Source: an uncultured Actinomycetes bacterium (GTDB lineage: Bacteria > Actinomycetota > Thermoleophilia > UBA2241). Taken from it: a stretch of 64,000 nt of DNA. The notes below the pieces were generated by a model. That model was given only the letters and a program-made list of their open reading frames with translations. It had not been told where the DNA came from and ran no database searches. Positions 8,256 to 30,292 of this stretch are shown piece after piece. The translations under genes and the position numbers were made by a program. Location of the stretch: the NCBI GenBank assembly GCA_963725665.1, contig CAVRZA010000003.1, forward strand, positions 234,894 through 298,893. The letters run 5' to 3'. The first letter of the stretch is position 1, and each line of letters begins with the position of its first letter.

Positions 8256-8436
8256 TTACGCAAGCGCGTCGCGCAGAGCACACGGTGCGGGTGGACGTTC
8301 GACGGATCGCACCTCGACCTCGCTCGTCCGCGTTTCGTCGCCGTGGCGGTCCGCGGTCTGTGTCGAGGCGGTGCCGGTCGGGTACCTTGTGGCCCAGACG
8401 AAGCGGCGTGAGAAGCGATGAGGAGGTGAGGTCTGC

Positions 8437-8649
8437 TTGGCGTTGACCGTGTATACGAAGGTAGGCTGCACAGCGTGCGAGGCGCTAGTGAGAGACTTGA
8501 AGGCGCGAGACGTGCCGTATCGGCTGGTCGATATCGACCGCTCGCCCGGCGGCGCGCAGGAACTCTCTCACCTGACCGGAGGCAGGCCGACAGTGCCCAC
8601 CGTAGTTGACGAGGACGGCGAAGTGCTGCTCGGTTTCGGCAACACCTGA
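8437..8649 (+). CDS. Small glutaredoxin-like protein (CxxC); terminal TGA might be Sec
   Basis: VYTKVGCTAC, TVP cis-Pro motif, C-terminal GFGNT; strong AGGAGGTGA RBS. Confidence 0.8.
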   Translation: MALTVYTKVGCTACEALVRDLKARDVPYRLVDIDRSPGGAQELSHLTGGRPTVPTVVDEDGEVLLGFGNT

Positions 8650-8787
8650 GGAGGAGACCGTGGCCTGCGTCGGCGGCTCTGGCTGGCCGAACGCAGGCGT
8701 CGGCGCGCGTGACGCGCTGGATCAACTCACCAAGCGGTGCGCCGCGCAGCGCCAGTGCATCGCTTCGCTGCTCAGGCGCGACCCTAG

Positions 8788-8818
8788 GGGTGGGCGGCAA
8801 GGGACGAGCCGCCCACCC
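8788..8818. terminator. Hairpin between convergent genes
   Basis: GGGTGGGCGGC / GCCGCCCACCC 11-bp inverted repeat. Confidence 0.6.
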
Positions 8819-8830
8819 TCTATGCGTCGG

Positions 8831-9614
8831 TCACGAAGGCTTGCTCGAATAGGTCGCCACGCGCCTCGCGTGTTCTTCTAGGCCGATCGGACAGGCGTCG
8901 TGACAGATGAGGCACTCGTGGCTCCCACGCGGCGAGTAGTGTCCCGCCCACTTCTGCCAGGCCTTGTTGGGCTCGGCCAGCATCTCCTGCGGGACGATGC
9001 ACTTCCAGAAGTCGACCTTCTTGCCGGGCTCCACGCCTTGCGATGGACCGGGGATGATGGCCCCCGTGGGGCAGGCCCTGACGCACAGCTCGCAGTCGCC
9101 ACAGAGGTCCCTCGCGAACGGCTCGTCGTAGGGCAGAGCCGCGTCGGTGACCACGCAGCACCAGCGCACGCGCGGGCCAAGCAGTCGGGGTGACGCACAG
9201 GGTCTGCTTGCCGATCCACCCCAGACCGCCCATCGTGGCGGCGGCCTTCGCGTGCACGAAATGGGTGACGGCAGTCTTGTGCCCGGCGTCTCTCACGGCC
9301 TCTGCGAAGCGGTGAGCGCGGGCCTCGGTCAGCTCGTAGTAGAGATTGTAGTACTGCGATCCCGGCACGTCGTCGAAGGGGATGGCACCGTCGGGCAGCA
9401 CGGACGTCACGACGGTGTTGAGCATCGTGTCCCAGATGTGCATGCCGAGCACGATGACGCTCTTCGCACCGTCGAGGAACCCGTTTGGCACCTCCAGGCA
9501 GCGATGCGGCGGAAACGGGACCGCAGCAAGCTTCTCGGCGTCGACGACGCCGAAGAACTCGAACCCATGGTCCGCTGCCTCGGCCCGCAATCGTTCCTTC
9601 AGGTCAGGCGACAC
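8831..9614 (-). CDS. QueG-like / reductive-dehalogenase-like 2x[4Fe-4S] protein (frameshift near 9180)
   Basis: AKSVIVLG and KAAATMGGLGWIGK in one frame; GPRVRW..VVTD, CGDCELCVRACPTGAI and CLICHDACP in the next. Confidence 0.8.
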
Positions 9615-9900
9615 GACACGACCTCACTTCCTCTACGCGCAGTGCGCTGGTCTAGAACCTGTCCACATGATGGCGGGCGCGGCGGCTTCGGTGCGGCCGC
9701 CTTCACTCCCTCGACGCGATCGTTGAGCGTCGAAACGTGCCTGCATGGCGGCATTATAGTCCGCGGTGCGCGGCCGTCTACCTCGCTCCAAGATGCGGGC
9801 CGTGGAGCGCTCCGAGTCCAGGGGCCACGCACACCGTCCTCTGGCAGGGCGCAGCCCGACTCGCTAGACTCCCGCTGCCGCGGTAGGGCCCTCTGCCACC

Positions 9901-10413
9901 GTGAAGGTCGCAATGAGGCTCTTCGGCAAACCCGATATCGAGCAGATGAGGCGCGATGGCGACATCGCAGGCCTTGTCCACTGGGCTGACTTCCGTAGGG
10001 ACCAGAGCCTGAGTCGCGCCGCGGTAGCGGCTTTGCGCGAGAACGTCTACGCGGTCGTGGAGCGTCTGTTCGACACCGCTGTCTGGGCTCACGCGCACAG
10101 GGGGCCAGGCCGCAGGGGTCTGTCACCTTCGGGGGTGCATCGGCTCAACGAGATCACGGTCGCCTTGCGCAAGATCGGTCCGCCCGCCGTCGCTCCTCTC
10201 GCCGATTCGGTCCGCCTGTACGGCGACTACGGGGACCCCGACGAGCACATGCGATTCCTCTACTTCGCCCTGGTCTTTGACGTGTTGCAGAAGATAGGAC
10301 GTCCGGCGGCGAACGAGTTGCGTGACCTCGCCGAAGGCGCAGATCCCGATGTCCGCGAGCATGCGCAGGAGGCGTTGAGCAAGCTCGAAGCACGAGGTCA
10401 GCTTGACGACTGA
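9901..10413 (+). CDS. Hypothetical helical (HEAT-repeat-like) protein
   Basis: ALRKIGPPAVAPL and LQKIGRPA..DPDVREHAQEALSKL resemble HEAT/PBS-lyase repeats. Confidence 0.6.
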   Translation: MKVAMRLFGKPDIEQMRRDGDIAGLVHWADFRRDQSLSRAAVAALRENVYAVVERLFDTAVWAHAHRGPGRRGLSPSGVHRLNEITVALRKIGPPAVAPLADSVRLYGDYGDPDEHMRFLYFALVFDVLQKIGRPAANELRDLAEGADPDVREHAQEALSKLEARGQLDD

Positions 10414-28608: not shown

Positions 28609-28693
28609 GAGCCGCAATGTAGCGCGCCGGCCGTGCGGCCGTCGCCGGCCTGCGGAGCGGCCGGCGACGGTTGGGCTAGACGGCGCAACAAGA

Positions 28694-28732
28694 GGGGCCG
28701 CGGCGGAGGCGAAGAGCCTCCGCCGCGGCCCC
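28694..28732. terminator. Bidirectional hairpin between convergent genes
   Basis: Perfect 17-bp stem, GAAGA loop. Confidence 0.65.
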
Positions 28733-28758
28733 CACGTCTTGGGGCGCCGTTTCGCGGC

Positions 28759-29199
28759 CTAGACGACGAGGACCGGGATCCCTCCCGCCTCGTGGAGCAC
28801 CCTGGACGTCGTCGAACCCAATTGGGTCCGTTCGCCCTCACGAGCGCCCGCGCCCTTGGCACCGACGACGATCATGTGGGCGCCGATATCTTGAGCTATG
28901 TTGACCACCGCCACGTCGGGCCGGTCGGGGGTGCAGGCAGTCGCCACTGCGACCCCGGCCTCTCGGACTCGTCCCGCAGCCAGATCGAGCTCGGCTTCGA
29001 TCTGTTTCGAGACCTCGTCCCACAGCTCCTCGACCCCCATCTCTGGGCCGCGGAACCCGATGGCCGGTGCGGGACGATCCTGCGCGCAGGCGATCGTGAT
29101 CTGGCCGTCGGGCATCAACTTGGCGATCTCGACGGCGGTGTCGAGAGCTTTGATCGAGTTCGCAGAGCCGTCGTATCCAACAACGATGTTGTAGGCCAT
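28759..29199 (-). CDS. Universal stress protein
   Basis: IVVGYDGS...MIVVGAKG...LGSTTSRVLH..IPVLVV. Confidence 0.92.
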   Translation of the reverse strand: MAYNIVVGYDGSANSIKALDTAVEIAKLMPDGQITIACAQDRPAPAIGFRGPEMGVEELWDEVSKQIEAELDLAAGRVREAGVAVATACTPDRPDVAVVNIAQDIGAHMIVVGAKGAGAREGERTQLGSTTSRVLHEAGGIPVLVV

Positions 29200-29331
29200 C
29201 CCGCTTCCCCCTTGGTCCCAGATGTATGCGCCAACCTATACCCGGCCCAGCCGTACGGCAATCGAAGGAAGGTCTCAACCTCCTCGGGCAGCATGAGTCG
29301 TCGTGGCCGTCAGCCCTGGCCGGGATGCAGG

Positions 29332-30135
29332 CTACTCCAAGAGCCCGGCGCGATGAGCCTTGAGGTAGTTGCCGCAGTAGGGGTCCTCGCCGCGCAGCGC
29401 CTCGGCGGCCTTGATGGTGGCCAGCATCTCCTTGTTGCGCACGTCGAGCACGGCGCCGTCGATGCCCAGGCCCATGCACATGGCGACGAAGGTGCGGTTG
29501 AGCAGGGGGCGGTTGGGCAGGCCGAAGCTGACGTTGGAGAGGCCGCCGATGGTGCGCACGGGGAGGCGCTCCTTGACCATCCTTAGGGTCTCCATGGTGA
29601 TCACGCCGGCGCTGGAGTCGGCCGAGACGGTGAGCACCAAGGGATCGACCCAGAGCTCGGCGGCGGGCAGGCCGGCGGCGGTCACCAGCTCGTGCATCTT
29701 GGCCGCCACGGCGAAGCGCTCGGCGGCCGTCGCGGGCACGCCCTCGTCGGAGAGGCAGAGGCCCACCACGGAGCAGCCGTGGGCCTTTATCATGGGCAGG
29801 GCGGCGTCGATGCGCTTCTGCTCGCCGCTGATGGAGTTGATGAAGGGCACCTGGCCACCGCCGGCGAGGGCCGCCTCGACGCCGGCCCGTAAGGCCTCGG
29901 GGCTGGCCGAGTCGACCATGAGGCGCCGCTGCGAGACGCTGCGCACCGTCTCGATGAGCCAGCGCATGTCGGCCACCTCGTCGCCGCCGGCCACGCCGGC
30001 GTTGACGTCGAGGACCGCGGCGCCCGCCTCGTCCTGCTCTCGCGCGAGGCCCTTGATGAACTCGGCGTCGCGCGCCGAGATGGCCTCGCCCACCTGCTTA
30101 CGTGTACCGTTGATCGATTCACCCACGAGCAGCAT
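29332..30135 (-). CDS. Pterin-binding methylcorrinoid:tetrahydrofolate methyltransferase (AcsE/MeTr-like)
   Basis: [52 protein letters not shown]. Confidence 0.92.
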
Positions 30136-30292
30136 CTTCCAGGACCTCCACGTACGAAGCCGGTGTGTGAGAGCTGATTCTAACCCTCGCGGCGACCGAG
30201 ACAACCGGTTGGCCGCCTCAGTGGGCCTTTTGCGCCCGTTGGGCAAGTCTGCTACAGTATCCGCCGCGTTTCGTCCCGAGAGAGGCCCTCAC

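Follow-up and report, generated by a model that had tools for sequence, protein, structure and literature searches.

The stretch analyzed here, a window of 64 kb (C3:234894-298893) from the genome of an uncultured actinobacterium, contains a cluster of methylamine methyltransferase genes between trmD and rplS, which lie about 22 kb apart in it. Coordinates are positions in the window unless a contig is named; the genome (G000) comprises 3.73 Mb in 12 contigs and is 97.5% complete. Genes were called from the GC content of third codon positions (GC3), and families were assigned by scans with Pfam, TIGR/NCBIfam, and Rfam models. Between trmD and rplS lie mtmB–mtmC–amt, mtbB–mtbC–permease, a second APC permease gene, a tetrahydrofolate (THF) methyltransferase gene, and several signalling genes (Table 1), all of which a first-pass annotation had already recognized and placed correctly, with amt in the right frame. 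The cluster is read here, with a probability of about 0.8, as a chromosomal and non-mobile locus for the catabolism of dimethylamine (DMA) and monomethylamine (MMA) in a Thermoleophilia-like actinobacterium, a member of a family that reads UAG as pyrrolysine (Pyl).

Each of the two methyltransferase genes carries a single in-frame TAG codon, at 11688-11690 in mtmB (residue 209) and at 25545-25547 in mtbB (residue 354). MtmB matches the PF05369 profile over its full length (profile positions 1-449 of 450, 633 bits) and aligns with Methanosarcina barkeri MtmB1 (PDB 1TV2/1L2Q) at an E-value of 1e-151. In this alignment, the TAG resides within the conserved GMG-x-G-x-ET block, and residue 209 corresponds to chain residue 202 of the M. 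barkeri enzyme, which we take to be pyrrolysine and the catalytic position. For MtbB, no solved structure was found to align. The Rfam elements PYLIS_2 (89 bits) and PYLIS_1 (58 bits, below the gathering score) begin exactly on the TAG codons of mtbB and mtmB, respectively, and mtmC, encoding the adjacent cognate corrinoid protein, begins 114 bp downstream of mtmB. The TAG-free MtmB paralogues of the same genome are only 27-29% identical to this Pyl-type MtmB. Protein database matches to MtmB are mostly half-length products ending at the TAG, few of them named, and are uninformative for taxonomy. The cluster is real, coherent, and probably functional.

The machinery for pyrrolysine decoding is encoded elsewhere in the genome. 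On contig C6, a corrinoid protein gene lies between pylSc (314 bits) and pylSn (119 bits), which are separated by about 2 kb, and 47 kb away are pylB (448 bits), pylC (339 bits), and pylD (212 bits), the last of which is followed by the tRNA-Pyl(cta) gene (C6:343702-343774). PylSn, PylSc, PylB, PylC, and PylD all score above curated cut-offs, and the gene set for pyrrolysine decoding (pylT, PylSn with PylSc, and pylBCD) is present in the genome. The first-pass annotation, which had not seen pyl genes, ramA, or mttB at the locus, had predicted them elsewhere while allowing that the genome might lack pyl genes; the full pyl set lies on C6, and the others were likewise located in the rest of the genome. 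The MttB superfamily has 31 matches, six of them with one TAG, and the MtbB family has eight loci, of which the seven listed carry one TAG each. Two RamA/RACo homologues are encoded outside the cluster; the second (C11:277489-278214) contains one in-frame TGA, which may mark a selenoprotein or reflect an error of assembly, and a tRNA-Sec gene lies on the same contig (C11:550041-550138). Wood–Ljungdahl-linked genes, also proposed as worth a search, are represented by those for AcsB, MTHFR, and FTHFS. Another candidate Pyl protein, at C6:217757-219262 (L248:2757-4262), was rejected; Pfam resolves it into DUF1638 and CN_hydrolase, two in-frame genes parted by a TAG alone, which adjoin genes for a corrinoid protein and an ATP:corrinoid adenosyltransferase.

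Comparison of the trmD–rplS junction among relatives, a check proposed at the outset, confirmed the split and showed it to be uncommon. Of the 23 class-level loci that contain both genes, 22 have them side by side, with start-to-start distances of 736-1030 bp and 1816 bp in one locus, and so do 27 of 29 same-family loci, with 66-213 bp between the aligned ends; the same-family exceptions are G004 (765-bp gap) and G036. Alignments to the DNA of 12 relatives break off at about 8213 and begin again at 30225-30250, and therefore the insert extends from about 8214/8256 to 30158/30224. The insertion is specific to this lineage. In G036 (C22:1-4545, L162), a cNMP–CBS–DUF294 gene lies between trmD and rplS on the opposite strand, 61-76% identical to the two copies in the window, and the right boundary is identical to that seen here; this spacer may have received insertions repeatedly, or the DUF294 gene may have resided there for a long time.

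Mobility functions were sought within and around the insert. No integrase or transposase was found by a Pfam scan of every GC3-supported open reading frame (ORF) of the island, in which the uncovered gaps are at most about 650 bp, and none of the 19 PF00589 (tyrosine recombinase) matches of the genome falls within C3:243149-265185, bearing out the first impression that such genes are missing. Outside the insert, two matches to tyrosine recombinases are strong, at 145 and 160 bits; they are located 6 kb downstream (C3:271374-271907, window 36022-37062) and 18 kb upstream (C3:224707-225225) and are probably housekeeping genes of the XerC/XerD type. No repeat pairs the island ends as flanking direct (att) repeats, and no tRNA gene that could serve as a target lies nearby, the sole tRNA genes of C3 being at 15.5 kb and 121 kb. 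The term “island” applies only loosely: the insertion is lineage-specific and slightly low in GC, has neither mobility genes nor att repeats, and is made of modules typical of the family.

Counterparts of the modules occur elsewhere in the family. In G013, which belongs to another genus, one contig carries mtbB (89%), mtbC (73%), a permease gene (53%), a universal stress protein (Usp) gene, and an Fe–S protein gene (75%) in this order, directly preceding orthologues of genes that lie at 221-231 kb and 282-297 kb of C6 in the present genome, a series that ends with pylSc. In the present genome, the G013-type module has left the pylS neighbourhood, and its pieces now lie at both ends of the island. 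At the right end, 29330-30157 is an 828-bp, 99.3% identical copy (blastn) of C6:463963-464790, where a 267-aa gene is flanked by genes for a GGDEF/GAF/HD protein and a peptidase S58. The cluster was probably put together in the trmD–rplS spacer from modules circulating in the family and from a methyl-THF methyltransferase gene recently copied from elsewhere in this genome. The best reading of these comparisons is a non-mobile cluster whose modules were exchanged or changed place inside the family, rather than a block received from another phylum.

Several observations weigh against the reading of the locus as a functional, resident methylamine cluster. The GC content of the island is 65.5%, compared with 68.4% for the genome, placing it among the 3% of same-size windows with the lowest values, about 2 standard deviations below the mean, and the GC contents of the island mtbB (62.8%) and mtmB (64.1%) are below those of six other mtbB paralogues measured (66.5-69.4%). 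Because of these low values, some lateral input is likely, and assembly in place is one reading only. The ramA homologues and pyl genes are not linked to the cluster, and a heme-copper oxidase subunit I (COX1) is encoded, which is atypical for classical anaerobic Pyl- and corrinoid-dependent methylotrophs. TAG terminates 990 of 2623 GC3-filtered ORFs of at least 150 aa (38%, a crude call), so that pyrrolysine must coexist with UAG termination. Finally, two cluster genes contain frame changes, through decay or long-read assembly errors, and the contamination estimate for this metagenome-assembled genome (MAG) is 5%.

The least improbable of the alternatives, though still unlikely, is that a mobile island was acquired horizontally as a single block from a source beyond the lineage (Bacillota, Desulfobacterota, or methanogens). 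The low GC of the island and of its mtbB and mtmB would fit such an origin, as would the location, which is unique, and a sporadic distribution, with Pyl-type MtmB in 3 of 37 genomes of the host family and the mtbB subtype of the window in 11 of 80 relatives. However, the block lacks an integrase, a transposase, flanking direct repeats, and a nearby tRNA gene; the closest homologues of its modules are found in the same family (mtbB 86-92%, Fe–S protein 75%, DUF294 protein 61-76%); its MtmB falls within an actinobacterial clade (99/99) and not with Thermincola or Methanosarcinaceae; and its end gene is a near-identical copy of a gene from its own genome.

It is less probable still that the locus is an assembly or binning chimera, with 22 kb misjoined between trmD and rplS. 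The genome is a long-read MAG with the contamination estimate given above, the right end carries the 828-bp near-identical repeat, and no public sequencing run contained more than 0.2 of the sampled left-junction words. However, the block lies well within a contig of 299 kb, both flanks are collinear with relatives to within about 70 bp, and a misjoin would have to have occurred twice, exactly, within one 135-bp spacer. In G036, moreover, a related DUF294 gene occupies the same site independently, with the same right boundary. As for read support over the two junctions, the left one is crossed by a 245-nt contig from run X3 that covers 8074-8318 with 3 mismatches, which is weak support and maybe not independent of the source sample, while contigs from X1 and X5 diverge from the window at 8209, as insertion-free relatives would. 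The public-run contigs compared are otherwise short fragments of 90-99% likeness.

The frame changes themselves are found in two genes of the cluster. The second DUF294 copy (22203-24165) has four, near 22778, 23145, 23290, and 23647, and is either a pseudogene or the product of assembly indels, and the Fe–S protein gene (8831-9623) has one, near 9170-9181, its two parts showing 75% and 74% identity to one intact 261-aa ORF of G013 (L163:5548-6333); none of the breaks in either gene lies at a homopolymer. Equally improbable is the idea that mtmB and mtbB, with their TAG interruptions, are no longer functional or have been split and that the cluster no longer uses pyrrolysine: TAG is a frequent stop in this genome, two neighbouring genes are frame-broken, and the PYLIS_1 match is under the Rfam gathering score, but each gene has one TAG only, at the catalytic Pyl position, both gene halves show coding-type GC3 and full-length hidden Markov model matches, the pyl gene set is complete and accompanied by tRNA-Pyl, and the MtbB genes of relatives have exactly one in-frame TAG in 150 of the 150 rows listed in one search and, in a second listing, one or two TAGs in the full-length matches, the sole TAG-free row ending at residue 269.

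The host, from soil or sediment, is judged by sequence comparison to be a Thermoleophilia-like member of Actinomycetota. The best named matches of its Ffh protein are an uncultured Actinomycetes MAG (79%), another Actinomycetes MAG (68%), and then Solirubrobacterales/Thermoleophilia MAGs (about 65%), in agreement with the actinobacterial assignment made at first sight. The further suggestion that such a host is not classically associated with pyrrolysine finds no support in that form. PylSc above the cut-off is encoded in 72 of 79 sampled genomes of the family, in 9 of 61 genomes of a second family, and in none of 260 genomes from ten other families of the class, and Pyl-type MtbB, with as many as 13 matches in one genome, occurs in 34 of 36 genomes of the family. 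In print, the available text of a review counts PylRS in “two Actinobacteria” (PMC11764691), and the main text of Ellenbogen et al. (2023) reports Actinobacteriota MAGs that express mttB and mtbB genes encoding pyrrolysine (PMC10805028). The concern that the lineage might be an already described one was thus borne out in part, for Pyl-type mttB and mtbB as given in that main text (PMC10805028). The word mtmB is absent from the same main text, the supplements of which may hold more (PMC10805028). A literature search on pyrrolysine or mtmB with Actinomycetota, Actinobacteriota, or Thermoleophilia returned no Pyl-MtmB locus, supplements and mostly full texts being outside its reach. The pyrrolysine methylamine trait is the norm for the family of the host and has been touched on in print, which reduces the surprise of finding it here.

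Pyl-type MtmB is rarer than Pyl-type MtbB and occurs in 5 of 61 genomes, three in the host family (G000, G019, and G033) and two in the second family (G044 and G059); TAG-free MtmB homologues are common among the genomes compared. Orthologues of the window mtbB subtype, 86-92% identical and containing the TAG, are found in three other genera, and all remaining MtbB paralogues are at most 67% identical to the window copy. MtbB has radiated within the genome, with loci at C2:493936-505138, C2:303439, C2:512544, C1:241211, and C4:189703, four of them within 20 kb on C2, and it is conceivable that the paralogues act on substrates other than DMA. A maximum-likelihood tree of MtmB was computed from 20 rows, namely 10 of 77 MtmB loci, four Pyl-type and three TAG-free sequences of relatives, two TAG-free paralogues from the same genome, and the window protein. 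All Pyl-type MtmB sequences group together (100/100), and the six actinobacterial ones form one clade (99/99), in which the two families are interleaved and which is separate from a Thermincola/Thermodesulfovibrionales pair and from Methanosarcinaceae. One further sequence, from a 2-kb contig of a Tissierellaceae MAG (L225), is nested in the Methanosarcinaceae clade (97/91) and reflects either a mis-binned archaeal contig or a recent transfer. In G044 of the second family (G044:C12:38000-56234, L161), pylS, two Pyl-mtbB genes, corrinoid genes, and a Pyl-mtmB gene are found in about 16 kb; this pyl-plus-methylamine supercluster is compact in G044, whereas its counterparts are dispersed in G000.

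The cluster resembles several known systems. As in the mtmCB- and mtbCB-permease operons of Methanosarcina, MtmB and MtbB are both Pyl-containing enzymes, and both are accompanied by their own corrinoid protein and by a permease of the APC family. The TAG lies at the same catalytic position as in Methanosarcina MtmB1 (PDB 1NTH/1L2Q/1TV2), the PYLIS models match, and 28 Methanosarcinales loci have a homologue of the permease after mtmB. It differs from the Methanosarcina systems in sequence (about 51-53% identity), in gene order (B–C here, and presumably C–B in the methanogen operons), in the methyl acceptor, which would be THF via the pterin-binding methyltransferase instead of coenzyme M via MtbA, and in its bacterial host with a split PylSn/PylSc. 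Desulfitobacterium hafniense MtgB/MtgC/MtgA and Eubacterium limosum MtqB/C/A, which we take to be corrinoid methyltransferase systems that feed THF, share its three-component plan, in which a methyltransferase for the substrate works with a corrinoid protein and a methylcorrinoid:THF methyltransferase and a RamA-type activase is encoded at another site of the genome, and NF005719 and MtgC-type corrinoid models match the cluster proteins; the substrate enzymes of these systems, however, are non-Pyl members of the MttB family acting on quaternary amines, in contrast to the Pyl-dependent MtmB and MtbB found here. The Pyl-mtmB loci of Thermincola and Thermodesulfovibrionales (L170 and L171) encode MtmB proteins of 62-63% identity and have homologues of both permeases nearby (58% and 51-54%), but they belong to other phyla, form a separate MtmB branch, and do not lie at trmD–rplS. 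Actinobacteriota MAGs from Stordalen Mire (genus RBG-16-64-13) share the phylum and the enzyme type, which is transcribed in nature, whereas the main text of that study contains no mtmB and no locus architecture (PMC10805028). The cluster is a good, well-resolved addition to a kind of system already known.

The gene content supports the coherent route from uptake through methyl-corrinoid to methyl-THF that the first-pass annotation had envisaged. DMA would enter through the APC permease encoded at 26932-28608, and MMA through the MtmP-like permease encoded at 17082-18383, possibly also through Amt. MtbB, with pyrrolysine at residue 354, is predicted to methylate Co(I)-MtbC with release of MMA, and MtmB, with pyrrolysine at residue 209, to methylate Co(I)-MtmC with release of ammonium. 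The pterin-binding methyltransferase (29332-30246) would then hand the methyl groups to THF, and methyl-THF would be oxidized outside the cluster (MTHFR and FTHFS) or enter acetyl-CoA synthase. RamA homologues would re-reduce inactive corrinoid, and Pyl-tRNA would be supplied by pylT, pylSn, pylSc, and pylBCD of contig C6.

The roles of the transporters can be narrowed by comparison. Homologues of the permease encoded at 17082-18383 (43-58% identity) lie directly downstream of mtmB in 29 of 77 MtmB loci, those of Thermincola and 28 Methanosarcinales, and because of this position the gene, initially noted simply as a second APC permease, is a counterpart of the methanogen permease linked to mtmB. 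Its product is the likeliest candidate for the MMA importer. Homologues of the permease encoded at 26932-28608 (51-54% identity) lie near mtmB or mtbB in L163 (G013), L170, and L171, and it is a probable DMA importer. The corresponding methanogen permease genes are, we take it, those named mtmP and mtbP. Amt may release ammonium from the cell, take it back, or transport methylammonium; uptake of the latter would come in addition to the ammonia handling first proposed. Adjacency to a P-II gene, tried as a means of telling a housekeeping amt from a specialized one, was of no use, as the only P-II gene adjoins neither amt copy. Both in G013 and in the present genome, the mtbB module is accompanied by the 261-aa QueG/RdhA-like protein with two [4Fe–4S] motifs, which may donate electrons when corrinoid is reactivated.

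The remaining features of the insert and its flanks are listed in Table 1. The 150-aa N-terminal part of the Fe–S protein has no match to any family. An ORF on the plus strand at 9147-9989, at first taken for a gene with a 47% match in G013, is an antisense shadow of the Fe–S gene, and an ORF overlapping amt (13312-14646) is an artefact with no Pfam match. A tblastx comparison of 8256-11063 with the genome was dominated by high-GC noise, and the sole match used from it is that to L163. The small membrane protein encoded at 19426-20199 shows 48% identity over 161 aa to L107:1901-2371, which adjoins the Pyl-mtmB gene of G059. Translation of the methyl-THF methyltransferase (29332-30246) probably starts at 30135, and a promoter-like site at 30204-30177, a consensus match only, is compatible with this start.

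Table 1. Features of the trmD–rplS interval and its flanks in the 64-kb window
Feature	Coordinates	Strand	Evidence
trmD, left flank	7572-8255	+	PF01746, 152 bits; DNA homology with relatives stops at about 8213 (blastn, 12 relatives)
Small glutaredoxin-like protein, 70 aa, CxxC motif	8437-8649	+	PF00462, 45.7 bits; coding-phase GC signal
QueG/RdhA-like Fe–S protein	8831-9623	-	N-terminal part 9623-9175, 2x[4Fe–4S] part 9169-8831; Fer4/Fer4_16 domains
Hypothetical protein, 170 aa	9901-10413	+	Coding-phase GC signal; weak HEAT-repeat match PF13646, E 0.0026, below cut-off
mtmB, monomethylamine:corrinoid methyltransferase	11064-12473	+	PF05369, 633 bits; in-frame TAG 11688-11690
PYLIS_1-like element	11688-11787	+	RF01982, 57.8 bits (gathering score 70), E 1.3e-10
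mtmC, cognate corrinoid protein	12587-13231	+	TIGR02370, 229 bits (cut-off 215); B12-binding domains
Amt ammonium/methylammonium transporter	13331-14590	+	TIGR00836, 418 bits (cut-off 343); PF00909, 372 bits
Ser/Thr kinase-like protein	14651-15445	+	PF00069, 65 bits; profile positions 3-151 of 263 only
Hypothetical protein, no family	15690-16232	+	GC3 call; no Pfam match below E 0.008
APC permease, MtmP-like	17082-18383	+	PF00324/PF13520
Universal stress protein	18410-18865	+	PF00582, 115 bits
Hypothetical protein, no family	18908-19573	+	GC3 call; no Pfam match
Small membrane protein, Pro/Lys-rich tail	19426-20199	+	Real start probably internal
cNMP-binding/CBS/DUF294 nucleotidyltransferase (signalling), intact	20278-22089	+	PF03445, PF10335, PF00571, PF00027
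Second cNMP/CBS/DUF294 copy, frame-broken	22203-24165	+	Pfam pieces in four frames; tblastn frames
mtbB, dimethylamine:corrinoid methyltransferase	24486-25886	+	TIGR02368, 561 bits (cut-off 369); PF09505, 664 bits; TAG 25545-25547
PYLIS_2 element	25545-25644	+	RF02509, 89.3 bits (gathering score 36), E 6.5e-21
mtbC, cognate corrinoid protein	25924-26586	+	TIGR02370, 223 bits
APC permease, trimethylamine N-oxide (TMAO)-permease family	26932-28608	+	NF053774, 748 bits (cut-off 690)
Universal stress protein	28759-29199	-	PF00582, 69 bits; in G013 too a Usp follows the permease
Methyl-THF:corrinoid methyltransferase, pterin-binding, MtgA/MtqA/AcsE-like	29332-30246	-	NF005719, 294 bits (cut-off 259)
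rplS, right flank	30293-30637	+	85-92% identical to RplS of relatives; homology with relatives resumes at 30225-30250

In the available text of the pyrrolysine literature searched, Actinomycetota are scarcely mentioned (PMC11764691 and PMC10805028). For this phylum, the locus provides a reference on the MMA and DMA steps that is complete and well assembled, and Pyl-type MtmB is seen to exist as an actinobacterial clade. The genome is also a convenient case of pyrrolysine decoding under heavy use of TAG as a stop codon, with about 15 TAG-containing methyltransferase genes alongside. A search for further genome-wide “TAG read-through” candidates gave 124, which proved to be mostly adjacent in-frame genes. 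The Pyl enzyme set comprises the eight MtbB-family loci (seven listed with a TAG), six TAG-containing MttB proteins, and one Pyl-type MtmB, and relatives have up to 13 MtbB.

A wider and more tentative possibility, which for now must be thought doubtful, is that the cluster is the visible part of something larger, in which a whole family of high-GC actinobacteria from soil and sediment, also encoding an oxidase, combines near-universal pyrrolysine decoding and unusually large sets of Pyl enzymes with TAG ending about one-third of its genes. If so, the reading of UAG would be conditional or context-dependent in a manner undescribed for bacteria, the MtbB radiation may span amines beyond DMA, and methylamine cassettes would move within the family without classical mobility genes. 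Methylamines are direct methane precursors, for which bacteria that transfer their methyl groups to THF are in competition with methylotrophic methanogens; on the same supposition, these actinobacteria would be a sizeable non-methanogenic sink for methylamines.

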